Shown: positions 33,801 to 61,448, counted from the first letter of the stretch. The stretch is DNA of 64,000 nucleotides from an uncultured Flavobacteriales bacterium (GCA_965661765.1 CBFIFE010000008.1:5737-69736), one strand, 5' to 3'. The notes: generated from the sequence alone by a model not told the origin. Translations and numbers: made by a program.

Positions 33801-34475
33801 GCGGCAGCCATAGGTTTGGCCTGCATTCAACACCACATCAAAAGCCACGCCGGCGGGATGCCCGATCAAATCTTCTGTCGGCACAATGGTCACCACGGTG
33901 TTGTCCTCCGTGGCCACAATGTCGAAACTCGCGGGCGCCTCCGGGAAATGATTCGTGAGTTGCGTTTGAAAAGGCAGCAGAAATTCGGTGCCCAAGGCGT
34001 TGCTGCCCTTCAAGACAAACAAATCTGCATTCAAATCGTTGTCAATTTCGTAATAGCAGGAGATGTCAGATGTGCTTGTGATGTGAATGCCTTTTTGCAA
34101 TACCAAATTCGCCGGTCGGTTTTCCACGTCCTCCATGTAGGGGGTCATGTTCAAACTCACCGCCGCGTTTGCACCGATGTTCACCACCAGTGGCGCAAAG
34201 GCGGGGTTTGCGGGCATCTCGAGGGTGACGGTGGCCGGGGCATCGCTCGTGCTGAACCGGAACATGATGGGTTCGTCCCCGTGGTTTGCCCACACTTCTG
34301 GCGCCACAAACCAAAACTCAGTGTCAAGCTGCGCCCGCAATTCCCCCGAGACCCACCCGAGAAGCGACGCGCCAAGGCAAACGAGCCGCACCAGAAGGTG
34401 CCGTCGCGTCGCTCCGAGCGAGTTGTTGAAAACTCGGTTTTTTGTGACAAATGAGGTCAATATTTGGTCAAACAT
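30852..34475 (-). CDS. T9SS type B cargo: giant adhesin-like protein (IgGFc-binding-protein-like N-domain, Ig/PKD-like repeats, gliding-motility CTD)
   Basis: N-terminal LDTEFWFVAPEVWANHGDEPIMFRFST... C-terminal FFAPSAFTPDNDGLNDAW...VVLDRWGHIVFES...GVYAYSLQL. ATG at 34475 chosen because the upstream ORF part overlaps the divergent WYL gene. Confidence 0.85.
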   Translation of the reverse strand: MFDQILTSFVTKNRVFNNSLGATRRHLLVRLVCLGASLLGWVSGELRAQLDTEFWFVAPEVWANHGDEPIMFRFSTSDAPATVTLEMPANPAFAPLVVNIGANAAVSLNMTPYMEDVENRPANLVLQKGIHITSTSDISCYYEIDNDLNADLFVLKGSNALGTEFLLPFQTQLTNHFPEAPASFDIVATEDNTVVTIVPTEDLIGHPAGVAFDVVLNAGQTYGCRAAGLTGPAHPAGTSVTSSAPIAITIADDSAEQFANNQLCFDLIGDQITPITEAGVEFIAQRGALATNERIFILATTDGTGITQNGTPLLGNLNAGETLSLQLTTPTLHIATTEPVLIFQVTGFGCEVGGGLLPALECTGSGEVVFVRSTTDNFRMNVLTPAGTEGDFTINGNPNLLQAADFAVVPATGGDWLFAQLVNPGFVGTGAATQVINPSGAFHLGLMMGTGGSYARFGYFSDFAKPTFDLAISDDDVCAGESVQIQPAPIPNATYNWTFNDAPYSVTDTLTFAPVSTADAGMYILSGVTADGCEIEPDTFILEVAAGPPALTPTVDAPICEGAAVVLSSGAPATADSVVWMAPNGNATVSQDLDWPSADPAFNGDWSVSAYTDGCGSSPAVLSINVVPTATIDLGTDEITACAGDAVDLPLGNVASGGLFWHIEGNNLGIGPGDAWQDLGLNEAGWWVLQGDADGCEVMPDSLWMVVVQPQDLVLGVPEFLCTLGDPFELSTSYIGPGNWDASCTFCINPSTGLFDPAAAGEGPVEVTYNGTGVCPASMTVSFDILLTPDPGIVLPEPACVGTPSVDLVAALGGGQWSAPGCAGCIDGDAFLPAVAGEGTWYIAYDTFGDCPATANATFEVTANPSSGFSPASDFCINALPVALLPVTGGGEFSGPGVSASGGFNPIVAGEFEVSHTLPGFCGSTTTQTLTVHPLPDPGFDATPLSGCVPFVVEGTATVAGEGSSLWSFTDANGGVATEGTSDNAVFTMYQAGCGELSRTVTSSAGCTASSDAVIVCGAPSPSSGFQVSPPDPSRFAPWIVATSVYDAADSALVDWDWHFQGDDGMGQDAPSANINLLLAPVEPATVCLTVTDSTGCSATTCRSIPFVEPVDFFAPSAFTPDNDGLNDAWIVRPFGFTASEVLDYRCVVLDRWGHIVFESTVPGEPWVGDISGGAHFAEDGVYAYSLQLRLLDGRRMEKTGAVVLTR

Positions 34476-34508
34476 CAAAAAATGCTTTCGTTTGCGTTCC
34501 GTCAAGTC

Positions 34509-35426
34509 ATGGAGTTCAACCAAAACAGAATTCACAGGATATTCCAGCTCATCCGGCTGATGAAAGTCCCGCCCTTTCGGACGAAAGAACAACTCGGGGA
34601 GTCAGTGGGTTGCACGGTTCGGTCCATTTACCGATATATTCACTTGCTGGAAGACCTTGGATTCGTTGTCAAGGATGACCTCGAAGGACGGCTGTGGTTG
34701 GAAGGAGGCGATGTGCACGGTGGTTTGACACCGAACGAAATTGAATTCGTTGTTCAAATTCTGACAGCCTCTGCCCCCAACCACGCCCTGGCGACAAGCA
34801 TTGTTCGCAAGTTAAGCGCTGAAGAGCAAACCGACACCACGTCTGAGTCGATTGCGGAAGCCAGCCACATGCGTGTGTTGGAGCAATGCACAGCTGCGAT
34901 CGAGAATCGCCTGCAATTGGTCCTTGTGGGCTATGCATCTGCCCATTCCGGATCCATTCGGGACCGGTTGGTGGAGCCCGTGAGTTTCGTTCACAATTAC
35001 CAGAGCTTGAGCGCTTTTGAAGTGATTTCAGGCCAAATGAAGCTCTTCAAACTCCACCGCGTCGCAGATGCTGTGATGACCACCCAGCCTTTCGAACACG
35101 AGAACGCCCACCTTCAAATGCAGACGGATTGTTTCGGGTTTGCTTGGCGAGCGGATCAGCCCGCCCGGTTCATTGAGATGCACCTTTCCCTGCGCGCAGG
35201 GCTCGTGCTTCAAGAGGAACATCCACGAACCAAGGACTACATTTCGCCATCCTCAGATGCGGAGGGGTTCGACATTCGCGTGCCGGTCGCCGATTACCGC
35301 GCCCCGGGCCGATTTGTCAAGGGCTGGGGGGCAGCCGATGCCGTGGCCAGAGGCGATGAAGGATTCCTCGCTTTTTTGGCCTCAACCCCCGCTGACGACA
35401 GTCTCCCGACCGCCTTGGATTCTTGA
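34509..35426 (+). CDS. YafY-like HTH + WYL domain transcriptional regulator
   Basis: RIHRIFQLIRLMKVPPFRTKEQLGESVGCTVRSIYRYIHLLEDLGFVV (HTH_11-type), then a WYL-like segment RLVEPVSFVHNYQSLSAFEVISGQMKLFKLHRV. Confidence 0.8.
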   Translation: MEFNQNRIHRIFQLIRLMKVPPFRTKEQLGESVGCTVRSIYRYIHLLEDLGFVVKDDLEGRLWLEGGDVHGGLTPNEIEFVVQILTASAPNHALATSIVRKLSAEEQTDTTSESIAEASHMRVLEQCTAAIENRLQLVLVGYASAHSGSIRDRLVEPVSFVHNYQSLSAFEVISGQMKLFKLHRVADAVMTTQPFEHENAHLQMQTDCFGFAWRADQPARFIEMHLSLRAGLVLQEEHPRTKDYISPSSDAEGFDIRVPVADYRAPGRFVKGWGAADAVARGDEGFLAFLASTPADDSLPTALDS

Positions 35427-42996: not shown

Positions 42997-44055
42997 ATGA
43001 ACCTGTCAAATGTACGATGCCAGTTGCTGAAATGCCTGGCAATTTCCGCTCTTCTTCTGGCGCCAGAAGCGCATTATGCCCAACTCTCACTGCTCTCGGG
43101 TGTTCCCTTTCAGGGATTGATTCGTTCTGCTGAGGGCGAGCCCTTGGCGAATGCGAATTGCACCATGGCGTTTGCGTTTGTGACGCCGTCAGATTCGGTG
43201 GTTTGGGCCGATACGTTGGCCGTGACAACAGACGCGTACGGTTTGGTGAGCACCCGGGTGGGCACCTCGTCTGCCTTGCAGGCGTTGCCCTGGAAGGACG
43301 AACTTTCGTTGCGGACGCAAGTGGATCTCGGTGGTGGTTTTTCGCTGCTTTCGACAGAACCAGTAGGGTTCGTCCCAGTCGCAGGGTTCGCGGCGAACGG
43401 ATTTTATGAGCAATCGCCGGAGGATTACCGGTTGGGTTTTACAGCGGATACGGTGCGCTTTCATGCCGACAGTGTGATTGTCATCGGGGATACGGATGTG
43501 GCTGGGGTGTTGACAAAGGTGGTGCGGCTGCAAGCGGAGGAAGATGTCATTTTCTCTGGGCGAGATGATGTCGTGGCCTTTGCTGATGACCAAATCAAGC
43601 TCAACGCCTTCACCGACATCTGGCTCAATGCGACAGACGATGTTCGCCTCGAGGGTGCTGATGACGTGCGGGGCACAGCGGCGAACGAGCTGGAGATGGT
43701 CGGTATGCGGCGAACGAACATCGGAACCGCCGCGGGCATCACCCCGACATCAGACACCACCACAGTGATGGGGGATTTGTACCTGAACATCGGGATGCCC
43801 GTGTTTCCTCCGCTGACAGGCACCGCTGCCGATACCGTTTATTTGTCCAACCAGGTCAATATCGGTGGAGAAAACATCAGCATCCACGGTCCTGTCACTT
43901 TCCATGGTCAGGCCTTGGGGTTGGACCCCACGGCCCCACAACATTTTGTGACGTTGAATTACCTCAACGCGGCCATGTTCAATTTGGTTCAGCAGGTCAA
44001 CGCCTTGCAGGCGGAACTGGAGGTGCTTCAAGGAAACGGTCTGCAAAATGACTAA
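42997..44055 (+). CDS. Hypothetical secreted protein with a beta-helix-like middle region and a C-terminal coiled coil
   Basis: Signal CLAISALLLAPEAHYAQ. Repetitive DDV.. segments. C-terminal GLDPTAPQHFVTLNYLNAAMFNLVQQVNALQAELEVLQ. Confidence 0.6.
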   Translation: MNLSNVRCQLLKCLAISALLLAPEAHYAQLSLLSGVPFQGLIRSAEGEPLANANCTMAFAFVTPSDSVVWADTLAVTTDAYGLVSTRVGTSSALQALPWKDELSLRTQVDLGGGFSLLSTEPVGFVPVAGFAANGFYEQSPEDYRLGFTADTVRFHADSVIVIGDTDVAGVLTKVVRLQAEEDVIFSGRDDVVAFADDQIKLNAFTDIWLNATDDVRLEGADDVRGTAANELEMVGMRRTNIGTAAGITPTSDTTTVMGDLYLNIGMPVFPPLTGTAADTVYLSNQVNIGGENISIHGPVTFHGQALGLDPTAPQHFVTLNYLNAAMFNLVQQVNALQAELEVLQGNGLQND

Positions 44056-44455
44056 GTGCTCATGGATCGCGGTGGTGGCCGGCCTGTTGCTGGGTTCAGC
44101 CGCCACTGCTCAAACCACCGGCCCGACCCTGCACGAACATGGAATGTCCTGTGCCACACCCTCTGGCACCTTGGATTCGGGCGAATCGGTGACCCTGGCT
44201 TTTGGGGTGCCTTTCTCTGGCGCTGTTGCTTGGGGAGCTGTCGGCTGGTTGCACCATCATCCTCCCATCGCTGGCAATGATTGTCCGCCGGACTTGGACA
44301 ACGACGGGGTGGTGGCGACATCGGATTTGCTGTTGCTGCTGGCGGACTTTGGTTGCACCAATTCTTGCGCTGCCGATATCAACGGAGATGGCCTGGTGTC
44401 ATCCGCGGATTTGCTCTCCTTGCTCGCTGCCTATGGAGACTTTTGCCAAACCTGA
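44048..44455 (+). CDS. Small secreted protein with dockerin-like (EF-hand-type) double repeat
   Basis: Signal MTKCSWIAVVAGLLLGSAATAQ. DLDNDGVVATSDLLLLLADFG and DINGDGLVSSADLLSLLAAYG. Overlaps the upstream gene by 8 nt. Confidence 0.55.
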   Translation: MTKCSWIAVVAGLLLGSAATAQTTGPTLHEHGMSCATPSGTLDSGESVTLAFGVPFSGAVAWGAVGWLHHHPPIAGNDCPPDLDNDGVVATSDLLLLLADFGCTNSCAADINGDGLVSSADLLSLLAAYGDFCQT

Positions 44456-44488: not shown

Positions 44489-45325
44489 TCAACGGCCAGT
44501 GATGCCCTCGCACTCCAACAGAATGCGAGCCACTTGGTTGGGCGGCAAGTGCAAAAGCCCCAACACCTCGGCGTTGAGGTCGCGGCAGAGAACGATGCCT
44601 TCCTCGAGCAGGGTTTTCTTGTCTCTGCGATTCAAACTTGTGAGGCACGTCAGCGGATGAAGCCCGCTTCCATCAATTCGGGCCTTCAGCGATCCGTCCG
44701 CAGGCGAGTCCCAGTCCACAAGGTGCAAGCCCACGCAATTGCCGTAGTCTCTGGCGTCCTGAGAGAAACGCGTGTTGGTGAAAATCCAGCCCTCGATGTC
44801 CCCGGCACGTTCCGGCGTCGCTTGGCGAATGTCTCGGAACCGGGAATCGATGTACAGCGGCACCTGAATCGTACTCTTGCGACTGGGGTCCCGGTGGAAT
44901 TTGCACTCCATGAGGCGCGTGGTTTGGCCTTTCGTGGCCAAAACATCGACTTCGTGCGATACACATGCCCCGTCGAGGATGACCCCCACTTCCACATCAT
45001 ACCCCTGGTGTGCGAACAGTTCACCGATGAAATGCTCGAAAGGAAAGCCGGAGGGGCCCAAATCGAAAATGGCTCGCTTCAAGCGGTACCTGCCAGCGCT
45101 GTGCGGGGCGCGCTGACGAAGTTTTCGGAAGGCGATGTTGTAGATCTTGCCCGAGGTCATGTTCCGGGGATCCGCGGCTGCAATCTCTGCAAGCACCTCG
45201 TCGATGACCGATTCGCCCGCCCCCGTTCTTTCCAGCGACAACCTCAGTTTCTCGGGGTTGAAAGTCTGGGTCTCGCCGTTGGATTTTTGGATGTCGAAGG
45301 ACAATGGGGCATTGGATGTGGGCAT
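44489..45325 (-). CDS. ATP-cone domain fused to a PD-(D/E)xK (Mrr-like) nuclease-fold domain
   Basis: N-terminal ATP-cone-like FNPEKLRLSLERTGAGESVIDEVLAEI. Nuclease core FEHFIGELFAHQGYDV...HEVDVLATKGQTTRLMECKFH (D...ExK). Confidence 0.75.
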   Translation of the reverse strand: MPTSNAPLSFDIQKSNGETQTFNPEKLRLSLERTGAGESVIDEVLAEIAAADPRNMTSGKIYNIAFRKLRQRAPHSAGRYRLKRAIFDLGPSGFPFEHFIGELFAHQGYDVEVGVILDGACVSHEVDVLATKGQTTRLMECKFHRDPSRKSTIQVPLYIDSRFRDIRQATPERAGDIEGWIFTNTRFSQDARDYGNCVGLHLVDWDSPADGSLKARIDGSGLHPLTCLTSLNRRDKKTLLEEGIVLCRDLNAEVLGLLHLPPNQVARILLECEGITGR

Positions 45326-45351: not shown

Positions 45352-48300
45352 ATGTTGAAGTCCAAGTCACGCCTTTTTTGGGTGGCCACATGCATGATGT
45401 TGGTGCCCGTGGCGCGGATTGCATTTGTCTTGAGCACCGGGCCCGGAGATTCTGGCGAACAGCCCCTGCTGTATCAACTTTTTCCTGAGCGTGTGTTTGA
45501 CGTTGAGGTGTCGTTGTCGCTGGCAGATGCAGACGGTGAAAGCACCATGCGAATGTATGTTCCGGTGGGGGATGAGCGCCAGGAAGTGCTGGTCGAAGGA
45601 ACGCTTGAGGGGCCTGGGCCTGCAGAATTGACAAATGAACCATCGGGTCGTTTGGCGACCTGGAAAGGAAGTTCCTTTTCAGACCCTTCCAAGGTCATGA
45701 TGGTGCGGCACGGTTACCGGGTGCGCCTTCGCGCTTTGCGCGTGAATTTGGACAGTTTGCCAGATGAAATGGCGCGCGTTCGACCGACACATGAAGTGCA
45801 TTTGGCCAGTACAGCGGACATTCAAACCTCGGCACCGGACATCGCCGACAGATTGCGGGCCATCGGCGCCCTCGCAGACACCCTATCGGTTTTGGAGAAG
45901 GTTCGTCGGGTGTATGACGATGTTTTGGCCCTGCGTCGGGCGCCCTTCAAAGGCACAACAGATGCGCTGACCGCCCTGCGATTGCAAGAGGCCTCCTGCA
46001 ACGGGCGCAGCCGCTTGATGGTCGCCATGCTCAGGACCCTCGGCATTCCGTCGCGCCTTGTGGGGGGCATCATTCTGGAGAACGGAACCAAGCGAACCAG
46101 CCACCAATGGCTCGAGGCCCATCTGGGCGGGATTTGGGTCCCTTTTGACGCCCTCAATGATCACTTCGCCGCTTTGCCCGACCGCTACCTGAAGCTCTAT
46201 ACGGGGGATGAGCCCTTGTTTCGGCATGCCATCGGTCTGCCCTTTGATTACAGTTTTTCTGTGACCTCCCGTCTGGTGATGCCAGCCGAAGGGTTGCGGG
46301 CTCATCAGGTCTGGCGTGCTTTCGATGCTGCCGGCATTCCGGTCTCCCTGTTGCAGTTTTTGCTCCTGATGCCCATTGGCGCGGTGGTTGTCGCCTTGAT
46401 GCGAAATGTGGTCGGCGCAAAGACCTTCGGGTTGTTTTTGCCTGCTTTGCTCGCCGTTTCGATGCGAGAGACTGGCTTCTTGATTGGCTCTGTCGCATTT
46501 GTCTCTGTGATAGGCCTGGTCGCTTTGTTGCACCCTTTGCTCGAGCGTTGGCGGCTGATGTACACCCCGAGGCTGGTCATTTTGCTCATTGCTGTGGTGA
46601 GTTTGTTCCTGGGCATCAGTGCTTTGGGCGTTTTTTTGGGCCAAACCCAGTTCGCCTACATCACCCTCTTTCCGATTGTGATTGTCGCCATCACCGCCGA
46701 GCGGTTGGCACGGAAGTGGGAGGAGTGGGGGGGGCGTGCGGCCCTGGCCACTGCAGCCCAAACCTTGCTTGTCGTTGGCCTCGCCTACCTCACCATGGGG
46801 TCATTGACGTTGGAGACAGCACTGCTGGCGTTTCCTGAGTTGTTTTTGGTGCTGGTGGGTGCGATGCTGTTGCTGGGCCGGTGGACCGGTGTCCGGGTTT
46901 CAGAGCTCTGGCGATTTCGCAGGGTCGGGAGGTCCGCCTTGGGGATGAACGCGAGAAATGTCCATGGGGTATTTGCCGCCAATTCCCCGCAGGCCATCGC
47001 CGTGGCGAATGACAAAATCGCCACGAAGACCTTGCTCGCGGAGGCTGGGATTCCCGTGTCTCCTCAACGCGGGGTGTTCGACTCGGTGATGTCGCTTTCG
47101 GGCCTTCGGGCGGTTTTGGACCGGCCAGTTGCGCTGAAACCAGCTGCGGGGCGAGGGGGAGGGGGCATTTTGTTGATTCAGCCCAGTCCGACCGGAGGAT
47201 TCGAGAACATCCATGGCGAACCGTTGCCATGGGATTTGGTCTTGCAGCATGCCACGGAAATCATTCACGGCCGGTTTTCTTTCGGGGATGAGGACACCCT
47301 GTTGGTGGAAGACATGCTTGTGCCCGACCCCGCGATCGCTGCCTTGCATGGCAAAGGCGTTGCCGATTTCCGTTTCATCTTCGAACAGGGGCGTCTGCTG
47401 ATGGCGATGCTCCGGTTGCCCACGAAGGCGTCGGATGGCAAGGCGAATTTGCATGCCGGTGGGGTGGGGGTTGCAGTGGATTTGGCGACCGGTGTATTGG
47501 GAGAGGTGGTGGGCCAGGATGGGGTTTCACCGGTGCATCCGGATGGGGCCCGGGTGCAAGGGAAAACGGTGCCACGTTGGGCGGATCTCCTCGGTGTGGC
47601 GGAGCGAGCGGCGGCCTTTTCGCCGCTTGGGTTCGTCGGGGTTGACCTCGTCTTGGACCAGCATCTGGGCCCCGTGGTGCTCGAGTGGAATGCCCGGCCG
47701 GGCTTAGAGATCCAGAACGTGCACGCTCAACCGTTGCCCCTGGCAGCTGGCCGCGCTGACCGTTTCCCGATGCCTTGGGGCATTGTGGCGTTGGGGCTGC
47801 TGTTGGCGATGGGTTTGGTGCTCTCAGACCAAATCCTGCTCAACCGATGGGCAGCCGCAGAAACCGAGACTTGGATCGCAGGCAATGCCCAATCCCAACC
47901 GAGTTTGTGGCAATGGGACGAGGAAGTCGATGGGAATGAGGAGGACGCAAGCGGTGCCTCATCCAGCGGGGATCCTTTGGTCCCTTCGGCTGAGGCAGAG
48001 GCAGCGGCTTCGATGGTGGCGCTGGCCGAGTCTGCCGAAGCGCGCGGGGATTGGTTGAAGGCGGAAGCCATTTGGCGTCAAATCGCCACCCGATCGACAA
48101 ATCCTCGGGCATGGATGGGGGTGGGCAAGTCGTGTCTTCGCCAAGAAGAATGGTCCAAGGCCTTGGCGGCCTACGATGCGGCATTGGCCATGGACAGTTT
48201 GCGGCATGGGGCATGGGTCAATGGGGGCATTGCCTTGAGCCAAATGCAGCGGCACGCTTCTGCCGCCGAGCGATACAGAAAGGCCCAACGTGTGGCCCCA

Positions 48301-50070
48301 GAGCGCATGAGCGCCTGGTTGAATGAGGGGATTGCTTGGCTTCGCGCCGGGGAGCCGGATCGCGCGCTTCCGCCGCTGGTGCATGCCGCCGATCGAACGA
48401 CTGGTGCTTTGAGGGCGAAGGTGTTGACGTATTTGGCGCAAGCCCAAACCGCCCGCAACGAGACCCAAGCCGCTCGAGCGAATTTTTCGGAAGCCATCAG
48501 TTTGAATCCCCGCACGGAACTCGCGCGCCTCGGTCTGGCCATGCTCGCCCCCAATCCTGAGGAGCAGCGACGCCTGATCGAGCAAGTGCTGCGTTTGAAC
48601 CCCACGTCGGCCATTGCCCATTTCCGGATGGCCGAAGCAGAATTTGCTGCTGGAAGGCGCTCCGAGGCGGAATTCCATTTTGAGCGGGCGCTGGATTTGG
48701 ATGCGAGCAACGCGGACTTCAAGCGGGGCCTTGTCACCTTCTACTTGTCAGAGCGCCGCTGGGCGGAGGCAGAGGCCTTGGTCCGCAGCGATCGAGCGAC
48801 AGATGCCGCCGATGCGTTCATCGCTGGCAGGATTGCCGCGGAGCGCGAGGCCTGGGAGGTAGCCGTGGCAGAATACGACACTGCGTTGGCGGCTTCCCAC
48901 AACGAAATGGCCGAGGCTTGGCTCAACCGGGGTGTCGCCTTGCGTCGCCTGGATCGCCTCGAGGACGCGCTGGCCTCCTACCGCTGGGCCGCATCCAAGC
49001 GAGAGCGTTACCCCGAAGCTTGGTACAACATGGCCTTGTCTTTTGCGGAGCTTGGGCAGTCCGATTCGGCGATTTTCGCGTACCGGCGTTGTTTGGATTT
49101 GGATTCGACAAAGGCGAATGCCCATTACAATCTGGGAATTTTGTTGGGCCAAACCGGGGACGCCCCAGCCGCCATCGCTGCATGGAAACAAGCCGTTTCA
49201 TTGGATCCGGCCATGCGCAAGGCGTGGTTCAACATCGGGGTGAACCTTCGGCAGCTGGGCGACAATCTCGGGGCCGTTCAGGCCTACGATTCCCTGCTGG
49301 CGCGCTTCCCGAACGATGAACGTGCCTGGTTCAACCGTGGCATTGCCCTGCGCGCGGAAGGCCGTGACAGCGAAGCCAAGGCCAGTTATCGGGCGGCGCT
49401 TGACGCGGACCCAGGTTACATCGCTGCATGGATCAACCTCGGCAGTTTGCAAGCGGATGCCGGAGACTATGCCGCCGCTGCATTCTCGTTCCAAGAGGCT
49501 GTGGAGCGGTCGCCGGGTCATGCCGAGGCCCGCTTCAACCTCGGATTGCAGTTGCGTCGTCTCGATCGGCAAGACGAAGCGGTCCTCGCCTTCGAACAGT
49601 CTGCTCAACTCGACCTGAACTTCCGCCGGCCCCGAGAGCAACTGCTCGAATTGTATGAAGTGATGGGGGCGGCCGACGATCGGCTGCGCATCGCGGACGA
49701 GCTGTTGACGAGGGCAGAAGTGGAAACTTGGGGGGGCGATTCGATTTATGAATACGCCCGGGAATTGCACCGCGCTGACCTTCAGAACCAAGCCATCCCG
49801 CGTTACGAGCTTTCAGTCAGCAATGGCAAAACGGGTGAATGGCCGTTGTACTGGCGCGCCAAGGCATTCGAGGAGCTCGGCGCAACAGCCGATGCCATCG
49901 CGGGTTACGACGATGTCCTGGACAGGGACCCTTCCTTCAAGTTTGCGTTGTACCGTTCGTCCATGCTGCTCGCGGTCACTGGAGATCGCAACGAAGCTGT
50001 CGCGCGCTGGGCCGAATTGGAGAACTTGCACCCTGAATTTGCGAAAGAAAAATGGTCCGACAAACCTTGA
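45352..50070 (+). CDS. Fusion protein: transglutaminase-like core + 7-TM module + RimK-related ATP-grasp ligase + TM + long TPR array
   Basis: QEASCNGRSRLMVAMLRTLGIPSRLVGG / SHQWLEAHLGG / WVPFD (C216, H251, D266). Seven hydrophobic helices at aa about 320-512. LGMNARNVHGVF..NDKIATKTLL, KANLHAGGVG, GVDLVLD..LEWNARPGLEIQN. TPR consensus repeats (W.N.G.AL...G....A...Y..AL.LDP) from aa about 885 to the end. Confidence 0.85.
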   Translation: MLKSKSRLFWVATCMMLVPVARIAFVLSTGPGDSGEQPLLYQLFPERVFDVEVSLSLADADGESTMRMYVPVGDERQEVLVEGTLEGPGPAELTNEPSGRLATWKGSSFSDPSKVMMVRHGYRVRLRALRVNLDSLPDEMARVRPTHEVHLASTADIQTSAPDIADRLRAIGALADTLSVLEKVRRVYDDVLALRRAPFKGTTDALTALRLQEASCNGRSRLMVAMLRTLGIPSRLVGGIILENGTKRTSHQWLEAHLGGIWVPFDALNDHFAALPDRYLKLYTGDEPLFRHAIGLPFDYSFSVTSRLVMPAEGLRAHQVWRAFDAAGIPVSLLQFLLLMPIGAVVVALMRNVVGAKTFGLFLPALLAVSMRETGFLIGSVAFVSVIGLVALLHPLLERWRLMYTPRLVILLIAVVSLFLGISALGVFLGQTQFAYITLFPIVIVAITAERLARKWEEWGGRAALATAAQTLLVVGLAYLTMGSLTLETALLAFPELFLVLVGAMLLLGRWTGVRVSELWRFRRVGRSALGMNARNVHGVFAANSPQAIAVANDKIATKTLLAEAGIPVSPQRGVFDSVMSLSGLRAVLDRPVALKPAAGRGGGGILLIQPSPTGGFENIHGEPLPWDLVLQHATEIIHGRFSFGDEDTLLVEDMLVPDPAIAALHGKGVADFRFIFEQGRLLMAMLRLPTKASDGKANLHAGGVGVAVDLATGVLGEVVGQDGVSPVHPDGARVQGKTVPRWADLLGVAERAAAFSPLGFVGVDLVLDQHLGPVVLEWNARPGLEIQNVHAQPLPLAAGRADRFPMPWGIVALGLLLAMGLVLSDQILLNRWAAAETETWIAGNAQSQPSLWQWDEEVDGNEEDASGASSSGDPLVPSAEAEAAASMVALAESAEARGDWLKAEAIWRQIATRSTNPRAWMGVGKSCLRQEEWSKALAAYDAALAMDSLRHGAWVNGGIALSQMQRHASAAERYRKAQRVAPERMSAWLNEGIAWLRAGEPDRALPPLVHAADRTTGALRAKVLTYLAQAQTARNETQAARANFSEAISLNPRTELARLGLAMLAPNPEEQRRLIEQVLRLNPTSAIAHFRMAEAEFAAGRRSEAEFHFERALDLDASNADFKRGLVTFYLSERRWAEAEALVRSDRATDAADAFIAGRIAAEREAWEVAVAEYDTALAASHNEMAEAWLNRGVALRRLDRLEDALASYRWAASKRERYPEAWYNMALSFAELGQSDSAIFAYRRCLDLDSTKANAHYNLGILLGQTGDAPAAIAAWKQAVSLDPAMRKAWFNIGVNLRQLGDNLGAVQAYDSLLARFPNDERAWFNRGIALRAEGRDSEAKASYRAALDADPGYIAAWINLGSLQADAGDYAAAAFSFQEAVERSPGHAEARFNLGLQLRRLDRQDEAVLAFEQSAQLDLNFRRPREQLLELYEVMGAADDRLRIADELLTRAEVETWGGDSIYEYARELHRADLQNQAIPRYELSVSNGKTGEWPLYWRAKAFEELGATADAIAGYDDVLDRDPSFKFALYRSSMLLAVTGDRNEAVARWAELENLHPEFAKEKWSDKP

Positions 50071-51317
50071 ACTTCCTGAACCACCTGGCCGTCTTTTGCT
50101 TGTGCGGGTTGTGGATGGCGCCAGCCTTGGGCCAAACCTGGGATCGCGACATTGAAATCGGTGCCCTCGGCGGGGTCGAATGGAATGTGTTTCATTCCCC
50201 GGAAACCTATGTCACAAATGACGGAACGGTGTTCCCTACAGATTCCATTGTTTTGCACGATCAGCTCACCCTGTTCGACATTGAAGTGGATTTCGACCGG
50301 GAAGATGACAACGGGGAATGGTACATTCAAGCGGATGCCGGGGCCTCTCGTTACGCCACGCTGTCATCGGCAAACCGCCGTTCCATCGATTTTCGGGTGG
50401 GACGTGAACAGACCTTGAATCGCCAAATGACAGCTTCTGCAGAAGCCCGTCTTCGGGACGAGAAGCGACTCGGAATCAACATCTTGGGCGACGAATTGCT
50501 GACATCTTTCAGTTTCACCCAGGCGCAGCTGGAAGGGGCCCTGGAGGTGGAGGCCCGCGACAACCTCGCGTTGGACCTCGAAGTGGAAGTGTTTCGAAAA
50601 TGGTTTGACCAGCGGGTGACGGGGGTGTCTTTGGACCAAACCGAATGGTCCATCTCCCTCGAGTCCTCCTGGGTGCCCAAGCGCCGGCGGCGGGGATTGC
50701 TGAATTTGGACCTCGTGGGCGAAAAGCGCATCGACGAATCGGGCGAGCTCACCACCGAACTCAGTTACAGGCAAAAAAACTATGCGAACTGGGTCAATTT
50801 CGACATCCTCGATCCCGCGCGCGACCCGCTGGCCCCGACGCCCTTTCTGCCTTTCGATTCGCTCTACGCCCACCCTTTGCGGCAGTGGACCTATGCCACG
50901 TTGACGGTGCGCTACGAATGGCCTGAATGGCGCGGCTGGTCGCTGCGGGTGGACGCCAGAACGCAACGAAGGAATGACCTGAGTTTTGGCGACTTCGGTT
51001 ACGTCGACGCGAAATCCGCTCTGCGGTTGGCCCATGAAGGGAAGGACTTGGAATTGGCAGGGTCTCTCTCTTATACCTGGCGAGAGTACACGGATCGACT
51101 CGCTGAGCAGCAGTCCCCTGCGCCTTTCCCATTGCTCAAGTACAACTACATCCGCCTCGACCTGTCTGCAGAATACCGGCTCAAGAAGGGGCTTCTGCTC
51201 CTGGCAATGGCGGACTTCACCCAACGGACCTCCAACACCACAGCCATCGACCGGCGCACCCGGCGAGAATACGCCACAGCAACGGTTCTGGTGGGGCTGA
51301 GCGCCGAATTCAATTGA
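50052..51317 (+). CDS. Hypothetical putative outer-membrane beta-barrel protein
   Basis: Signal LAVFCLCGLWMAPALGQ. Alternating amphipathic strands. C-terminal ...ATVLVGLSAEFN, with an aromatic residue at the penultimate position (terminal residue is Asn). Overlaps the preceding giant ORF by 19 nt. Confidence 0.55.
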   Translation: MVRQTLNFLNHLAVFCLCGLWMAPALGQTWDRDIEIGALGGVEWNVFHSPETYVTNDGTVFPTDSIVLHDQLTLFDIEVDFDREDDNGEWYIQADAGASRYATLSSANRRSIDFRVGREQTLNRQMTASAEARLRDEKRLGINILGDELLTSFSFTQAQLEGALEVEARDNLALDLEVEVFRKWFDQRVTGVSLDQTEWSISLESSWVPKRRRRGLLNLDLVGEKRIDESGELTTELSYRQKNYANWVNFDILDPARDPLAPTPFLPFDSLYAHPLRQWTYATLTVRYEWPEWRGWSLRVDARTQRRNDLSFGDFGYVDAKSALRLAHEGKDLELAGSLSYTWREYTDRLAEQQSPAPFPLLKYNYIRLDLSAEYRLKKGLLLLAMADFTQRTSNTTAIDRRTRREYATATVLVGLSAEFN

Positions 51318-51332
51318 CGTAGATTCGCGACC

Positions 51333-52592
51333 ATGGGAATTTTTCTGAGCCTTTTCGGCATGGCCGTCCTGATCGGGGGCGGCTGGTTGCTTTCATCTGA
51401 CCGGAAATCCATCGTTTGGCGCACCGTTCTCGGTGCCTTCGCCATCCAATTCGCCTTTGGGGCCTTCGTGCTGTACGTGCCTTGGGGCAAGCGGGTGTTG
51501 CAGACAATGTCTGATGCTGTCAACCGTGTGGTGCAATATGGACAGGATGGCATTGACTTCATGTTTGGTGCACTGGCTTCAGACCAAATGGGCCAGGTCT
51601 TCTCCGGTGGCGGCTTCGTCTTTGCTTTTCAGGTTCTGCCCATCATCATCTTTTTTTCCGCCCTCATTTCCGTCCTCTACTACATCGGCGTGATGCAGTG
51701 GGTCATTCAAATCCTCGGCGGCGGGCTGCGCATGCTCCTGGGCACCTCACGAGCGGAATCGATGTCTGCGACGGCCAACATTTTTGTCGGTCAGACCGAG
51801 GCACCACTTGTGGTGAAGCCGTTCATCGCTGGGATGACCAAATCTGAGCTCTTCGCCATCATGGTCGGTGGCCTGGCATCGGTCGCGGGGTCGGTCCTGG
51901 TCGGTTACGCCTCTCTCGGGGTCCCCGTGCCTTACCTGATTGCTGCCTCTTTCATGGCGGCCCCGGGCGGCCTCCTTTTCGCCAAGCTCATCAAGCCCGA
52001 AGTCGAAACACCCCGTGAGGACCTCACCTTGACCAGCGATGAAGCGGACGACGAGGCACCGGTCAATGTCATTGACGCCGCTGCGAAGGGCGCGGCATCT
52101 GGTGTTCAGCTGGCCTTCAATGTCGGTGCAATGCTTTTGGCCTTCGTCGGCATCATCGCCTTGATGAATGGAATGATTGGCGGAATCGGCGGTTGGTTCG
52201 GGCAGGACAATTGGTCCCTCGAAGGCGGACTGGGCTATCTGTTCGCTCCGGTGGCCTTCCTCATCGGCGTGCCTTGGTCAGAGGCCACCATTGCGGGCTC
52301 CTTCATCGGCCAGAAGTTCATCGTCAATGAGTTCGTGGCCTACCTGAATTTCTCACCTTATCTCGCTGAAGACGCTTCGGTCGTGTTGTCGGAAAAAACG
52401 AAGGCCATCATTTCGTTCGCCCTTTGCGGCTTTGCAAACCTTTCCTCCATCGCCATCCTCCTTGGGGGCATCGGTTCTTTGGCCCCTTCTCGCAGAAGTG
52501 AAATCGCCCGTTTCGGCATGCTCGCTGTGGTCGCTGCCACCCTCTCCAACCTCATGTCGGCGACCATCGCCGGTTTCTTTCTCAGCTTATGA
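51333..52592 (+). CDS. nupC: NupC/NupG-family concentrative nucleoside transporter
   Basis: 419 aa, multi-TM, with typical CNT blocks ([48 protein letters not shown]). Confidence 0.9.
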
Positions 52593-53875
52593 TGGCATCC
52601 TCCCGCAAGTTGCTTCCAGTGGAAGTCATTCGGCGCAAGCGCGATGGCCTCGTGCTCTCCGCCGAAGCCATCGGCCAATTCATCGATGGCGTGGTCTCCG
52701 GGGACGTCACCGACGCTCAAATCGCTGCCTTTTCGATGGCCACCTATTTTCAGGGACTCGACCCCACAGAGCGCACCGCCATCACGCGCGCCATGGCGCT
52801 GTCGGGCCGGTCGCTTCAATGGGACGCTGAGCGCCTCGGTGGTCCGGTGCTGGACAAGCACTCCACAGGCGGCGTGGGCGACGCGGTCTCCCTGATTCTC
52901 GCCCCCTTGCTCGCCGCCGTCGGCGGTTTCGTCCCCATGATTGCCGGTCGTGGCCTCGCGCACACGGGGGGCACCATTGACAAGTTGGAGGCCATCCCTG
53001 GCTACAATGTGGCGATTGATTTGGCATCTTTCCAAGCCATTGTTGCCCGGCATGGTTTCGCCATCTGCGGCCAAACCGCCGATCTCGCTCCCGCCGATGC
53101 CCGCATGTACGCCACCCGGGATGTCACTGCGACCGTCGAACAAAATGGCCTCATCACCGCCTCAATTCTCTCCAAAAAGCTCGCCGCGGGACTTGGGTTT
53201 TTGCTCATGGACATCAAGACGGGTTCTGGTGCCTTCATGCGAACGCGTGCTGAAGCTGAGTCGCTCGCTGAGGTCATCTGCGCGGTGGGCAACGCCGCTG
53301 GCATGAAGACCGAAGCGATGATCACGCCGATGGAGGAACCGCTGGCCGATTCGGCAGGCAATGCCTTGGAGGTCCGGGAGGCAGTCCAAATCTTGCGCGG
53401 CGAACGCACCGACGGCCCGCTTTTGGACGTGACGCTCTCCCTGGCCGAGCGGATGTGCCGGCAATCGGGACTGGACCCCGCGGCCCTTCAAGCGGCATTG
53501 ACCTCCGGTGCGGCACTGGAGCGGTTTGCCCGCGTTGTCCATGCCATGGGTGGTCCGTCCGACTTCGCTGACAATCTCGACGCCTACCTGCCTCAGGCCC
53601 CCATTGTTCGGGCTGTCCATGCGCCGGTGGGTGCCGAAGGCGTCGTCACAGGGATGGATACCCGAGAATTGGGCCTGGCGGTGGTGGATTTGGGAGGGGG
53701 CAGGAAGCGAACAGGTGACCCCATCGACACCCGCGTGGGCTGCCTTGATTGGGCACGGGCGGGTGATCCAACGAGCCGGCACCTGGCGGTGTTGCATGCC
53801 GCGGACGAAGCCAGTTTTGAACTCGCTGCCGCTCGCATTCAATCGGCCTACCGCTTCACCCCCTGGTCCCCCTAG
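52589..53875 (+). CDS. deoA: Thymidine (pyrimidine-nucleoside) phosphorylase
   Basis: [38 protein letters not shown] overlap with nupC. The stop TAG lies inside repeat array 3. Confidence 0.92.
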
Positions 53876-53938
53876 TTCCCTAGTCCCCCTAGTCTCCCTA
53901 GTATCCCTAGTCCCCCTAGTCCCCCTAGTCCCTCGTTC
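53861..53938. repeat. C3-tract/CTAG 8-9-nt tandem array 3 (9 units, 7 CTAG)
   Basis: CCCTGGTCC CCCTAGTT CCCTAGTCC CCCTAGTCT CCCTAGTAT CCCTAGTCC CCCTAGTCC CCCTAGTCC CTCGTTC, followed directly by the ATG at 53939. Confidence 0.9.
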
Positions 53939-54721
53939 ATGGTCAAAGTCAAAGTCTTCGACACCACCCGCCTCCAAGGCAAACCCCGCCCAGCGGCTCC
54001 GGCCGAATCCTTCAACCCATCGGATTTCCACAACCTCGTGGCGTCCCGCCGCAGCGTCCGCGTGTACACCGATCGTGCCATCCCAGAGGATGCCGTGCGC
54101 CGCGTGCAGCATTCCGCCTTGCAAGCGGCCACTTCGAGCAACCTGCAGACCACCGAGATTCACTGGGTTCGGAATCCTGAGAAGAAGCAGCAACTCGTCG
54201 CCGCTTGCCTCGGTCAACCCGCCGCAGCGACGGCCAAGGAGTTGTTTGTGGTGGTTGCCCGCCCAGATTTGTGGAAGCGGAACAACGATTGGATGATTGC
54301 CCACTTGAAGGCCACGCCAGATGCCCCCGAGCGGGCCATCCAATACTTCACGAAAATCACACGCTTGGTGTACACCATGGGACCCTTTGGGGTGTTGGGC
54401 CCGTTGAAGCGGATTTGGTTCGCTTTGCGCGGACTCCAGCAACCCACACCGCGAGAGCCAGTGAGCCTAGCCGACATGCGGACATGGGCCCAGAAAACTG
54501 CTGCCTTGGCCGCCGCCCATTTCATGCTGGGCATGCGCGCCGAAGGCTTTGACACGTGCCCGATGGAGGGAATGGACAGCAAGCGGATGCGCCAAATCTT
54601 GGGGCTCCCTCGCCAGGCCTGCATCACAATGGTGCTTTCAGCGGGTGAACGCGCCGAAGGCGGGGTTTACGGCCCGCGTTTCCGCTTTGATGCGGAACAC
54701 TTTTTGAAGGACCATTTCTAG
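53939..54721 (+). CDS. Nitroreductase family protein
   Basis: RRSVRVYTDRAIPEDAV..., GFDTCPMEGMD are typical nitroreductase-fold motifs. Confidence 0.8.
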   Translation: MVKVKVFDTTRLQGKPRPAAPAESFNPSDFHNLVASRRSVRVYTDRAIPEDAVRRVQHSALQAATSSNLQTTEIHWVRNPEKKQQLVAACLGQPAAATAKELFVVVARPDLWKRNNDWMIAHLKATPDAPERAIQYFTKITRLVYTMGPFGVLGPLKRIWFALRGLQQPTPREPVSLADMRTWAQKTAALAAAHFMLGMRAEGFDTCPMEGMDSKRMRQILGLPRQACITMVLSAGERAEGGVYGPRFRFDAEHFLKDHF

Positions 54722-58467: not shown

Positions 58468-58562
58468 GGTCGTGGGATACGAAGTTGCGGCCTCAGAGGT
58501 TGCGGCTCACGAGCGGTTTTTGCCCAATTTTTCCCGAACATTGTGCTGCAGAAATTGAAATC

Positions 58563-61448
58563 ATGAAGAAAATCGCTCTCGCCCATGCCTTGGGGCTGCG
58601 TTTGACCACCATTTTGTGTGTCGCCCTCTTGTCCTTTCAGGCCTCCGGCCAAACCCTCCCTTCGCCCGCCCACGTTCCCGGTGAATTGTTGGTGATGCTG
58701 GACAATCCCGCGCGCAATGTGGACAAGGTCCTTGCCGAATTGCAGGCCTTTGGGCAGGTGTCCCTGCTCGATGTGCCCTCTCCCTCGACGGGCATTCTCC
58801 TGTTGGGGGTGGCTTCAGGAACGGAGGCGGTTTGGCTCGATCGTCTTTCAGGCCATGCCAAGCTCCGGGCAGTCCAGCTCAACCACATCGCTCACGAGCG
58901 CGAAACGGTGCCCAACGACCCCAATTTCGGCCAGCAGTGGCATCACGTTCAGTCTGGTGACCACGACATCGACTCTGACCTCGCCTGGGACATCACCACC
59001 GGTGGCGTCGCTGGAAATGGCGCACGCATTGTCGTTGCGGTGCTCGAAGGCGGGGGCTCCAATTACAGCCACCCCGATCTCATCGACAACCACTGGGTCA
59101 ACCTCGCTGAGATTCCGAACAACAACATCGACGACGACAACAACGGATACGTCGACGACTACAACGGCTGGAACCCCGGTTCTGGCGACGACAACATCGC
59201 TGGTGGTGGCCATGGGACCTCGGTGAGTGGCATGATCGGGGCGACAGGCGACAACGGCAATGGCGGTGTTGGGGTCAATTGGGACGTGGACATCATGCAG
59301 ATTGATATGCCAGGCGGGCTGACGGAATCCAACGTCATCAGCTCCTACGAGTACCCCAAGGTGATGCGGGACATTTTCAACGAAACGTCAGGTGAAGCCG
59401 GCGCCTTCGTCGTGGCCACGAACGCCTCTTGGGGCATCGACGCGGCGGATCCATCGGATTTCCCCGTTTGGTGTGCCTACTACGATGCGCTGGGGGCCTC
59501 GGGCATTCTGAACTGCGGCGCCACCACGAACCAAAGCCTCAACGTCGATGTGGCGGGGGACATGCCCACGGCATGCGGATCTGATTACATGCTTTCCATC
59601 ACTGCGACCAACAACAATGACGTTCGCACGTTCTCTGGCTACGGTCAAACCACCGTCGATCTGGGGGCTCCTGGAGACAACGTTTGGTTGACCAGCGGCA
59701 GCAATGGCGGTGGCACCACTTCCGGCACGTCCTTCGCCAGCCCTTGCGTTGCCGGCGCGATTGCTTTGGTGTACAGCGTTCCTTGCGCTGAACTTGCGGC
59801 CCTGGCCCTCGAAAACCCCCAGGGTGCGGCAGACCTCGTTCGTGGCTACATTTTCGACGGTGTCGATCCAGTTGACAACCTCACAACCGAGACCGTAACG
59901 GGCGGTCGCTTGAATGTGTTCAATTCGGTGGAATTGGCCTTGGCCAACTGTGGCCCCATCGAATGTGAGCCCATGTCCTTGGACTCCATCACTGCCGCCT
60001 GCGTTTACGACGAGCAATTGATGGCAGTCAGCATTTCGACTTCATTGAGCGCAAGTTTCAACAACTTCCTTTGCACCCCGGACTCCGTATGCCTGGCCGC
60101 TTCTGGCACGATGGATTATGCGTGTGTCAACCTCGCTGAGGCGGGACTTGACTTGTCGAATGCCTTGAACGGCGACTGGCTGGATTTGGCCTCTAACACG
60201 GCCTATGACGTCTATTTCACCCTCGACAGCACCACTTCAAATGTCTTGACCTTCAGCACCCCAGACTGCGCCTCGCTTGTGCCCGGTTGCACGGATGCGA
60301 ATGCCCTGAATTACAATGCAGAGGCCACCATTGACGACGGCAGCTGTGAGTTCCCTTGCCAAGATGTGGTGATGACCATCACGACAGATTGCTGGCCCGA
60401 GGAGACGGGCTGGAGCATTGTGGCCGCCGACGGCGAAGTCCTCGTTGATGTGCCAGAAGGTGAATACGACGGACAGGATGAGACGATCATTGAGTGGACG
60501 GGGTGTGTGGCGGAGGGCTGCCATGAGTTGATTGTGACGGACGCATACGGTGATGGCATGAATGGAAGCATGTGGGGCGCTTGTGAGGTCGATGGAAACA
60601 TGGTGTTCACGACCCTGGATGGTGCCGTTTTGGCGGCATTGGAAGAGCCCAATTTTGGAGACCAAATCTCGTTCTCCTTCTGCCTCCCAGCGATCCCCGG
60701 TTGCACGGACATGGCGGCGTGCAATTACGATGCCGCAGCGAATGCCAATGACGGATCTTGCATCTCCGTGGGCGATGCCTGCGACGACGGGGATGAAAAC
60801 ACGGTTCTGGACGCCATCCAAGAGGATTGTCTGTGCGCAGGTGTCCTCCCCATCAACGGCTGCACAGACGCCTCCGCCTGCAACTACGCGATGGATGCCA
60901 ACGTCGATGATGGTTCTTGTGTATTCGTGGGCACCGGTGCGATCGAAGGCAACATGACACCGCAAAGCGGCATCCAGGAGACCTATGTCTACAACGGGGC
61001 TACGGCGGGAAATGCCTACAGCTGGTCCGTCAATGGCGGTGAAATCTTGACGGAGTCTTTCGGCGTGGATGTGACAAGCGTGGACATCTTGTGGTCGGCT
61101 TCCGGATTTGGGAGTGTGGCTGTGAATGAGACGGATGCGAGCTTCCAATTCTGCGAGGAAATCGTCTCCGTTACAGTGAATGTGTTGGTCAACAACATCG
61201 AAGAGTGGACCGCGGCAGGGGTCTCTGTATTCCCCAACCCGGCCTCTTCAGACCTCAATCTTCATTGGCCTTCCGCCACCGGTGAGGCCGAATTCCGTCT
61301 CTTTGACAGCACCGGCCGCGAGGTGCGACAAGGGCGGTTGGCAGGCGAAACGATGGTTTGGGATGTCAGCGATTTGGCTCGGGGTGTATATTCCTTGATG
61401 CTCCGTTCAGAGGGGCTTCAGTTGTCCACGACAATCGTGCTCCGTTAA
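58563..61448 (+). CDS. T9SS type A cargo: S8 (subtilisin-family) peptidase with Cys-rich accessory modules
   Basis: Signal MKKIALAHALGLRLTTILCVALLSFQASGQ. Catalytic blocks VAVLEGG (Asp region), HGTSVSGMIGA, GTSFASPCVAGAIAL. Three CTD..A.NY...A..DDGSC modules. CTD VFPNPASSDLNLHW...GVYSLMLRS. Confidence 0.9.
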   Translation: MKKIALAHALGLRLTTILCVALLSFQASGQTLPSPAHVPGELLVMLDNPARNVDKVLAELQAFGQVSLLDVPSPSTGILLLGVASGTEAVWLDRLSGHAKLRAVQLNHIAHERETVPNDPNFGQQWHHVQSGDHDIDSDLAWDITTGGVAGNGARIVVAVLEGGGSNYSHPDLIDNHWVNLAEIPNNNIDDDNNGYVDDYNGWNPGSGDDNIAGGGHGTSVSGMIGATGDNGNGGVGVNWDVDIMQIDMPGGLTESNVISSYEYPKVMRDIFNETSGEAGAFVVATNASWGIDAADPSDFPVWCAYYDALGASGILNCGATTNQSLNVDVAGDMPTACGSDYMLSITATNNNDVRTFSGYGQTTVDLGAPGDNVWLTSGSNGGGTTSGTSFASPCVAGAIALVYSVPCAELAALALENPQGAADLVRGYIFDGVDPVDNLTTETVTGGRLNVFNSVELALANCGPIECEPMSLDSITAACVYDEQLMAVSISTSLSASFNNFLCTPDSVCLAASGTMDYACVNLAEAGLDLSNALNGDWLDLASNTAYDVYFTLDSTTSNVLTFSTPDCASLVPGCTDANALNYNAEATIDDGSCEFPCQDVVMTITTDCWPEETGWSIVAADGEVLVDVPEGEYDGQDETIIEWTGCVAEGCHELIVTDAYGDGMNGSMWGACEVDGNMVFTTLDGAVLAALEEPNFGDQISFSFCLPAIPGCTDMAACNYDAAANANDGSCISVGDACDDGDENTVLDAIQEDCLCAGVLPINGCTDASACNYAMDANVDDGSCVFVGTGAIEGNMTPQSGIQETYVYNGATAGNAYSWSVNGGEILTESFGVDVTSVDILWSASGFGSVAVNETDASFQFCEEIVSVTVNVLVNNIEEWTAAGVSVFPNPASSDLNLHWPSATGEAEFRLFDSTGREVRQGRLAGETMVWDVSDLARGVYSLMLRSEGLQLSTTIVLR

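Follow-up and report, generated by a model that had tools for sequence, protein, structure and literature searches.

A triple fusion of transglutaminase-7TM, ATP-grasp ligase and TPR genes marks a protease-free, Rlo-like envelope cluster in an uncultured Flavobacteriales bacterium

We analysed a 64,000-nucleotide (nt) stretch of DNA from an uncultured Flavobacteriales bacterium (GCA_965661765.1, CBFIFE010000008.1:5737-69736), hereafter called the window, which harbours on its + strand a large open reading frame (ORF) at positions 45352..50070, coding for 1572 amino acids (aa) plus a stop. Frame analysis showed a single unbroken frame, as claimed in a preliminary description of this DNA. Pfam and NCBIfam profile searches of the ORF product, of the kind proposed there, recovered all four domains that it had listed: a transglutaminase (TGase)-like core, a seven-transmembrane (7TM) module, a RimK-related ATP-grasp ligase and a C-terminal region of tetratricopeptide repeats (TPR). 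The E-values obtained exclude chance for these matches. As described below, the ORF unites three adjacent genes of an envelope cluster, C (TGase-7TM), D (ATP-grasp) and E (TPR), and it overlaps a fourth gene, F, coding for a predicted outer-membrane barrel. The triple fusion is genuine, old and selectively maintained, and we are close to certain of the identity and reality of this fused cluster, which we call Rlo-like after the proteobacterial RloABC genes.

The protein starts with a basic N-terminus (MLKSKSR) followed by a signal anchor, TM0 (aa 8-26, 45373..45429), which is apparent from hydropathy, corresponds to a helix at aa 4-28 in an AlphaFold2 (AF2) model and is kept in the homologous fused proteins of contigs L016 and L019. 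For a near-identical database protein, P0150 (1558 aa), gene callers have placed the start at Met15 (window 45394), which would cut short the N-terminal membrane helix. The L016 and L019 homologues, 62% identical to the window protein, lack a Met there and also have the longer N-terminus from 45352, which makes 45352 the better start.

TM0 is followed by a beta-sandwich N-domain, predicted to be periplasmic (aa ~46-126, 45487..45729; strands at 46-126 in the AF2 model), and then by the TGase-like core (aa 179-267, 45886..46152). The latter matched Pfam PF01841 (Transglut_core) with E=4.9e-15 and 56.2 bits for a cut-off of 23, which, with a triad found in canonical motifs, places it in this superfamily. 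Cys216, His251 and Asp266 (codons 45997-45999, 46102-46104 and 46147-46149) align with the catalytic Cys, His and Asp residues of 3isr, a solved TGase-like cysteine protease, in agreement with the intact triad read earlier from the sequence. When the window protein was aligned with its 120 best homologues, Cys216 and His251 proved invariant in all 121 sequences, and the third position holds Asp in 81 of them, Cys in 38 and Gly in 2. Our AF2 model of aa 1-830 (pLDDT, the predicted local distance difference test, 89.8) has 3isr as its best Foldseek match (E=4.6e-13, target-normalised TM-score 0.70, ~285 aligned columns), with its periplasmic part superposing on the whole two-domain structure. 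The TGase-like domain is apparently an active periplasmic cysteine enzyme. Judging from the aligned homologues, the intact triad is a trait of the whole protease-free branch to which this cluster belongs, and is not special to the window protein.

The 7TM module (aa 331-510, 46342..46881) is the most conserved part of the protein. The seven hydrophobic helices noted in the preliminary description are borne out both by hydropathy and by a match to PF14402 (7TM_transglut) at aa 333-524, with E=7e-45 and 153.9 bits for a cut-off of 25. Conserved polar or charged residues within or bordering these helices include R351, N352, E450, R451 and E496. Hydropathy delineates nine transmembrane segments in all, namely aa 8-26, seven between 331 and 510, and 811-829 (TM8). 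The 7TM loops obey the positive-inside rule, with basic loops at 394-408 and 453-463, and the topologies obtained by hydropathy and by this rule agree and are self-consistent. The predicted arrangement is as follows: N-terminus in the cytoplasm, TM0, TGase-like domain in the periplasm, 7TM module, ATP-grasp domain in the cytoplasm, TM8, then linker and TPR region in the periplasm.

The ligase domain, predicted to be cytoplasmic, spans aa 528-795 (46933..47736). Its best NCBIfam match is TIGR02291, rimK_rel_E_lig (aa 528-790, E=8e-56), and Pfam assigns aa 542-791 to ATPgrasp_ST (PF14397, E=3e-43), in line with the RimK-related type proposed at the outset. The curated cut-offs are missed both for TIGR02291 (189.3 bits versus 314.2) and for the RimK family TIGR00768 (48.3 bits versus 143.4). 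The nucleotide- and Mg-binding motifs KPxxGxxGxG, NLHxGG and ExNxxPG are intact, and the corresponding segments, ALKPAAGRGGGG, NLHAGG and EWNARPGLE, align with those of RimK. Foldseek matches of the ligase comprise ArgX/LysX, RimK and the cyanophycin synthetase CphA1, and D-Ala-D-Ala ligases (Ddl) are also listed, below RimK, LysX and ArgX. Among solved structures, the closest in sequence is RimK, at about 20-23% identity. RimK is the poly-alpha-L-glutamate ligase of ribosomal protein S6, and RimB is its retropepsin-like partner. The window ligase shares with RimK the ATP-grasp fold and the conserved nucleotide/Mg motifs but, unlike RimK, which is soluble and has a cytoplasmic protein target, it is covalently tethered between membrane segments.

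Beyond the ligase, the ORF continues through the D/E fusion junction and TM8 (47737..47838; aa 811-829 by hydropathy, helix 809-829 in the AF2 model) into an acidic, poorly conserved linker (aa 830-880, 47839..47991; 32-45% identity within the fused clade) and a TPR scaffold, predicted to be periplasmic (aa 881-1572, 47992..50067). Many Pfam TPR families cover about aa 880-1570 (best E=5.6e-54), and weak NCBIfam matches to NlpI and LapB were also obtained. The extra helix, the acidic linker and the repeats extending to the C-terminus had thus been described correctly; the view of the TPR region as an appended scaffold does not stand. This region aligns with separate TPR proteins of 755-757 residues, coded on contigs L001 and L004, through a common C-terminus, HPEFA.EK...KP. 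The separate E proteins start with a basic N-terminus and a transmembrane helix, and they align colinearly with the ORF, indicating that TM8 is the N-terminal membrane anchor of the TPR protein. The TPR part is therefore a third conserved cluster gene with its own anchor, and the ORF is a C+D+E fusion of three genes rather than two.

Gene F (50052..51317, + strand), which the preliminary description had missed, is the fourth conserved partner, and its first 19 nt overlap the 3' end of the ORF, including the stop codon. It is probably translationally coupled to the fusion gene. F has a signal peptide and a C-terminal Phe, and an AF2 model built from a 22-sequence alignment consists of a signal helix and 16 long antiparallel strands (pLDDT 76.7, predicted TM-score (pTM) 0.74), as for a 16-stranded outer-membrane beta-barrel. 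Foldseek matches of this model are outer-membrane barrels only, including porins, FadL, BcsC, AlgE and PgaA, with modest TM-scores (0.35-0.44), and we therefore consider F as a generic barrel that does not belong to one exporter family. Using a hidden Markov model (HMM) of F, we located homologues in 16 related loci, in each case immediately after the ligase or TPR gene; these loci include those of Aquimarina, Dokdonia and Balneola, which lack the TPR gene.

Apart from the fused relatives described below, database matches to aa 1-830 are led by unfused TGase-7TM proteins of ~525 residues, and the nearest unfused relatives are 44-46% identical to the window protein. In the unfused clusters (contigs L001-L004, L013 and L014), C has 507-529 residues, D 270-272, E 755-757 and F, which has no Pfam match, 421-425. 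The separate C, D and E genes lie in three reading frames, with overlaps of 4-10 nt or gaps of ~5 nt. The L001 and L004 proteins are colinear, end to end, with aa 11-525 (C), 528-795 (D) and 803-1572 (E) of the window protein. At the C/D junction (aa 516-535, 46897..46956, RFRRVGRSALGMNARNV), the unfused relatives have a tail longer by ~8 residues, then a stop and a Met, where the fused sequence continues in frame, as it does in L016, L019 and the cluster of P0150.

The search with gene F revealed the same single-ORF fusion in L016 (1557 aa) and L019 (1561 aa), in proteins ~62% identical to that of the window, with both junctions in frame throughout. The downstream synteny is also that of the window: F, a nucleoside transporter, a pyrimidine-nucleoside phosphorylase and a nitroreductase. 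Within this fused clade, identity amounts to 81-85% for the 7TM module, 73-79% for the ATP-grasp domain, 66-68% for the TGase core, 55% for the TPR region and 32-46% for the linkers. Exact-sequence look-ups assigned the fusion to three clusters at 90% identity, with 18, 7 and 7 members, that is 32 database sequences, stemming from ENA, Logan, NCBI and JGI, on contigs of up to 74 kb; the window protein shares about 99-100% identity with the cluster that includes P0150 and P0300. At the nucleotide level, window positions 49053-53927 (4875 nt) match contig L015 without gaps, at 98.8% identity.

These data bear on the possibility that assembly chimerism or indels merged three ordinary genes. Given the three frames and tiny overlaps or gaps of the unfused genes, two indels would be enough and, in the RloABC locus of Aeromonas caviae (L023, 3671-6178), rloB and rloC lie in the same frame with only a stop codon between them, so that the loss of one stop would suffice for a C+D fusion. 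Nevertheless, an artefact is effectively excluded, because the same single ORF recurs in 32 sequences from four sources, because its junctions are in frame in two further lineages at 62% identity, and given the gap-free match to L015.

To define how rare the fusion is, we ran an exhaustive HMMER search of 1.84 billion representative sequences with a segment spanning both junctions. It yielded more than 20 C+D fusions of ~800-900 residues and more than 12 D+E fusions of ~940-1050 residues; one of the latter, P0204, was confirmed by Pfam, and its gene sits on contig L024 between a separate C gene and a gene for a secreted protein. The complete C+D+E fusion was found in one representative only, corresponding to one 50%-identity cluster. 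The initial statement that these modules are normally separate neighbours is thus correct for L001-L004 and similar loci, but C+D fusions are common by themselves and only the triple fusion is rare. Altogether, the states found are C|D|E|F, CD|E|F (L011 and L012), C|DE (L024) and CDE|F (window). The fused proteins are already present in public data, where JGI labels them 'alpha-L-glutamate ligase-like protein'; our literature searches brought up no account of them.

The same HMMER search returned proteins of ~470-680 residues that combine 7TM and ATP-grasp parts but lack a TGase domain, as well as four proteins of 1350-1420 residues (P0190, P0228, P0233 and P0283) that match the 7TM + ATP-grasp core at their C-terminal end. 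According to Pfam, the TGase domain is replaced in P0190 by a prenyltransferase/terpene-cyclase-like alpha/alpha toroid with faint similarity to the A-macroglobulin TED. As this toroid stands where the TGase-like domain would be, the periplasmic module looks exchangeable. In L012, the C+D-fused cluster (7637-11394) lies directly downstream of rpsF-rpsR-rplI, a single case that may be a coincidence; ribosomal protein S6 (RpsF) is a known substrate of RimK.

The association of 7TM, inactive TGase and ATP-grasp proteins was reportedly first described by Iyer et al. in 2009. The preliminary description rightly linked the locus to a proteobacterial trio of TGase-7TM, ATP-grasp and retropepsin genes, but that trio is no longer uncharacterised: it is now named RloABC and contributes to osmotic-stress tolerance in Pseudomonas aeruginosa (Lormand et al. 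2025, PMC12239564). RloA proteins are secreted retropepsin-like proteases that cleave polyglutamate in vitro, RloB is an 'inactive transglutaminase', predicted to be periplasmic, fused to a 7TM module, and RloC is a cytoplasmic ATP-grasp protein (PMC12239564). Deletion of rloB or rloC suppresses the hypo-osmotic lethality of a triple rloA mutant, and the product of RloB/RloC and its site of action were left open (PMC12239564). We found no follow-up on the Rlo mechanism in the literature searched. The names RloB and RloC are also borne by unrelated restriction-linked and anticodon-nuclease proteins in the anti-phage literature.

The window locus resembles RloABC in that a TGase-like + PF14402 7TM protein adjoins a RimK-related ATP-grasp ligase, with the former enzyme predicted to be periplasmic and the latter cytoplasmic, and in that the best NCBIfam matches are the RloB model NF052267 and TIGR02291. 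It differs by its intact triad, the lack of RloA in the window, the additional TPR and outer-membrane barrel genes, the fusion of three genes, and a Bacteroidota-type host rather than a gammaproteobacterium. Two bona fide Rlo trios served for comparison, one on a Legionella plasmid (L022) and one in Aeromonas (L023). Each has an RloA gene upstream and an RloB protein in which none of the three triad positions holds a catalytic residue. The HMM of F detected no homologue in these trios, and no TPR gene comes after the annotated trio of Legionella.

Conversely, Pfam scans of 30 ORFs across the 64-kb window revealed no retropepsin of the PF05618 type. Neither tblastn with Legionella RloA nor a two-sequence RloA HMM, both of which do recover RloA in L022 and L023, found anything in the six-frame translated window or in any locus with an active triad; the earlier observation that no protease partner is visible thus holds. 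Genes of 170-186 codons upstream of the flavobacterial clusters were considered as RloA candidates and turned out to code for extracytoplasmic function (ECF) sigma factors. The score for NF052267 is also far from its cut-off (137.6 bits versus 900). Thus, RloABC is the closest characterised system, where none had been matched before, yet the window fails the RloB and RloA tests; with scores far below the cut-offs, we classify the locus as a sister variant of Rlo and not as a member.

Genes A and B precede the fusion gene on the + strand. Gene A (42997..44055) codes for a secreted, fibre-like protein of 352 residues with a C-terminal coiled coil, as seen from its sequence, and a weak NCBIfam match to the N-domain of the Bdellovibrio MAT (mosaic adhesive trimer) fibre (E=0.002). 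Its homologues, 45-47% identical, are coded directly upstream of B and C in L001-L004. Gene B (44048..44455) codes for a secreted 135-residue protein with two dockerin-type Ca-binding repeats (Dockerin_1, E=3.8e-5; GC-type dockerin, E=3.3e-6), and its counterpart overlaps C in L001-L004. A and B are thus co-operonic with C in unfused relatives of the Bacteroidota type; we treat both as accessory because they are absent from other lineages. Their products may serve as cargo, anchor or adhesin. Gene B was also considered as a divergent RloA and discarded, as this small secreted dockerin-repeat protein has no match to the RloA HMM.

Between B and the fusion gene, a divergent gene on the - strand (44489..45325) codes for a 278-residue protein with Pfam ATP-cone and Mrr_cat (PD-(D/E)xK) domains. 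It occupies the same position in L016 (65% identity) and L019 (80%), is absent from unfused relatives and probably does not belong to the system. Also conserved is the 26-bp spacer (GCGCAAATGAACTAATTTTG-like) that separates it from the fusion start. In the window, this spacer harbours a perfect Bacteroidota -7 promoter motif, TAATTTTG, located 13 nt before the ATG, which would imply a nearly leaderless mRNA.

Downstream of F (51333-54721), the window codes for a nucleoside transporter, a pyrimidine-nucleoside phosphorylase and a nitroreductase, in the same order as in L016; the first two also follow F in L015. These genes have no obvious functional link to the envelope cluster. Three predicted cargo proteins of the type IX secretion system are coded in the window, two with CHU_C domains and one with Por_Secre_tail: a PKD + CHU_C protein (9085-12552, - strand), an IgGFc_binding + Ig_7 + CHU_C protein (30852-34592, - strand) and an S8 subtilase with Por_Secre_tail (58485-61448, + strand). 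Their domains suggest a host of the Bacteroidota type. All species-representative genomes found to have related clusters belong to Bacteroidota, namely Aquimarina, Dokdonia, Balneola and one Bacteroidota metagenome-assembled genome.

What the cluster does can be approached by comparison with known systems. Synthase-dependent secretion exports alginate (Alg8/44-AlgK-AlgE), cellulose (BcsA/B-BcsC), poly-N-acetylglucosamine (PNAG; PgaCD-PgaA) and Pel. The window locus shares with these systems the joint coding of an inner-membrane enzyme whose catalytic domain is cytoplasmic, a TPR protein in the periplasm and an outer-membrane barrel, although this is a likeness in the way they would work, with no homology beyond the generic TPR and barrel folds. 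Unlike those systems, it has an ATP-grasp peptide ligase in place of a family-2 glycosyltransferase, and its TPR region is anchored in the inner membrane instead of being a lipoprotein or fused to the barrel. Pfam detected no glycosyltransferase domain in the cluster proteins C, D, E, F, A and B.

The Bacillus PgsBCA/CapBCA systems, found in Gram-positive hosts, have a Mur-ligase-like PgsB, make a gamma linkage and involve no outer-membrane step. As we propose it, the cluster would share with PgsBCA/CapBCA and CapD a membrane-associated, ribosome-independent amide ligase, an exported anionic peptide, and extracytoplasmic processing or attachment (in part after PMC12239564), but its ligase has a fold unrelated to that of PgsB and the proposed linkage is alpha. 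In yet other operons, TGase-like domains are predicted to reverse or process peptide tags installed by ATP-grasp enzymes (Iyer et al. 2009, summarised in PMC3495828). These likewise pair an active TGase-like domain with an ATP-grasp ligase, but they add an alpha-E domain protein, and the summary mentions no membrane, TPR or barrel parts (PMC3495828). Moreover, the two enzymes of the window are predicted to lie on opposite sides of the membrane, joined by the 7TM module.

We propose that the cluster, a protease-free sister variant of Rlo, probably makes a peptide in the cytoplasm and handles it across the envelope. The cytoplasmic ATP-grasp domain would build an acidic oligo- or polypeptide from amino acids, of which glutamate is the most plausible, as suggested by analogy with RimK and with the polyglutamate specificity of RloA. 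The 7TM module, tethered to the ligase, would then pass the product to the periplasmic face, where the TGase-like enzyme would trim, hydrolyse or transfer it, a task carried out by secreted RloA in Pseudomonas and in keeping with the reversal of ATP-grasp tags predicted for TGase-like domains (PMC3495828). Finally, the TPR scaffold would bridge to barrel F, which may release or display the product across the outer membrane. By a Rosetta-stone argument, the existence of C+D, D+E and C+D+E fusions indicates that C, D and E act as one complex, and the fusion would enforce their 1:1:1 stoichiometry. The co-encoded barrel points to export of the ligase product. A periplasmic product is most strongly supported by the finding that the lethal effect of lacking the secreted RloA proteases is suppressed when rloB or rloC is lost (PMC12239564). 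As the triad is kept where RloA is missing and lost in the two RloA loci (Legionella and Aeromonas), we predict that the TGase domain and RloA are equivalent in periplasmic processing.

Several points weigh against this export model. Its product, substrate and transport are all proposed by analogy for the whole family, RloBC included, and glutamate specificity derives from the analogy with RimK at ~20% identity only. The conduction or channel role of the 7TM module is putative, and the top 50 PDB fold matches obtained with Foldseek all fall on the two soluble domains, none resembling the 7TM module. F is as similar to generic porins as it is to polymer exporters (TM-scores 0.35-0.44), it was not detected in the C-D-E loci L020 and L024, and E is absent from the Flavobacteriia clusters examined. 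The periplasmic TPR region is itself acidic, with 112 Asp+Glu for 87 Lys+Arg residues. Lastly, F has 16 conserved lumen-facing basic residues but the net charge of its lumen is negative, which lends no clear support to an arginine-lined, electropositive pore as a sign of a polyanionic substrate. We therefore put forward the export mechanism, drawn by analogy, as tentative, with rather more doubt than confidence; the combined statement of a fused Rlo-like cluster with that mechanism comes somewhat nearer to an even balance while still falling short of it.

It is also possible, if doubtful, that C-D-E-F forms a hitherto unrecognised type of double-membrane secretion pathway for a ribosome-independent, poly-alpha-glutamate-like peptide, which the 7TM module would translocate, the TGase-like enzyme trim or attach, and the TPR-barrel pair export. 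Such a pathway would be the peptide equivalent of alginate, cellulose and PNAG secretion. RloABC would then be a derived version, with its product kept in the periplasm, its TGase dead and turnover ensured by the retropepsin.

Alternatively, the cluster might mediate transmembrane signalling without any export, with the periplasmic TGase-like and TPR domains binding a ligand, the 7TM module relaying the signal and the ATP-grasp domain modifying a cytoplasmic target. The closest solved relatives of the ligase are indeed RimK enzymes acting on S6, one cluster lies immediately downstream of rpsF-rpsR-rplI, and the periplasmic domain, which can be TGase-like, a prenyltransferase-like toroid or absent, is exchangeable as sensor modules often are. 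However, the invariance of Cys and His in the 121 sequences favours catalysis over mere binding, the cluster has its own outer-membrane barrel gene, which overlaps the ORF, and the rpsF adjacency concerns a single locus; in Pseudomonas, moreover, the product of RloBC is genetically upstream of secreted proteases (PMC12239564). We regard signalling as unlikely.

Cell-wall remodelling appears improbable as well. The TGase-like domain would cleave or cross-link peptidoglycan peptides or envelope proteins, the ligase would act on a wall precursor in the manner of Ddl or Mur enzymes, and the TPR region and barrel would tether the complex to the outer membrane. This would fit the Rlo phenotypes, for which Lormand et al. 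proposed a peptidoglycan link (PMC12239564), and would agree with the presence of D-Ala-D-Ala ligases among the Foldseek matches and with the weak NlpI and LapB matches of the TPR region. Nevertheless, Ddl is outranked by RimK, LysX and ArgX, the best family match of the ligase is TIGR02291 and not a Ddl or Mur family, Pfam and NCBIfam detect no LysM, SPOR or PG_binding domain in any cluster protein, and RloA cleaves polyglutamate, not muropeptides (PMC12239564). That the cluster serves anti-phage defence or is mobile-element cargo, as the ATP-cone/Mrr_cat gene kept 26 bp upstream in the fused clade might suggest, is hardly credible, since the PADLOC matches are limited to a spurious one of the TPR region (21 bits) and a weak PD-(D/E)xK one of that neighbouring gene, the cluster proteins have no PHROG matches, unfused relatives keep the cluster without the nuclease gene, and the GC content is uniform across the region.

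The main result is thus the branch that the fusion reveals, rather than the size of the polypeptide. The locus described here represents a conserved branch of the Rlo family, without the protease and with an intact triad, joined to a TPR scaffold and an outer-membrane barrel, and the fusions indicate that the 7TM protein, the ligase and the periplasmic TPR scaffold form one physical complex. If the export model is right, Gram-negative bacteria secrete non-ribosomal peptide polymers by a pathway of the synthase-dependent kind. The single-polypeptide version found in the window would lend itself well to structural and biochemical work.

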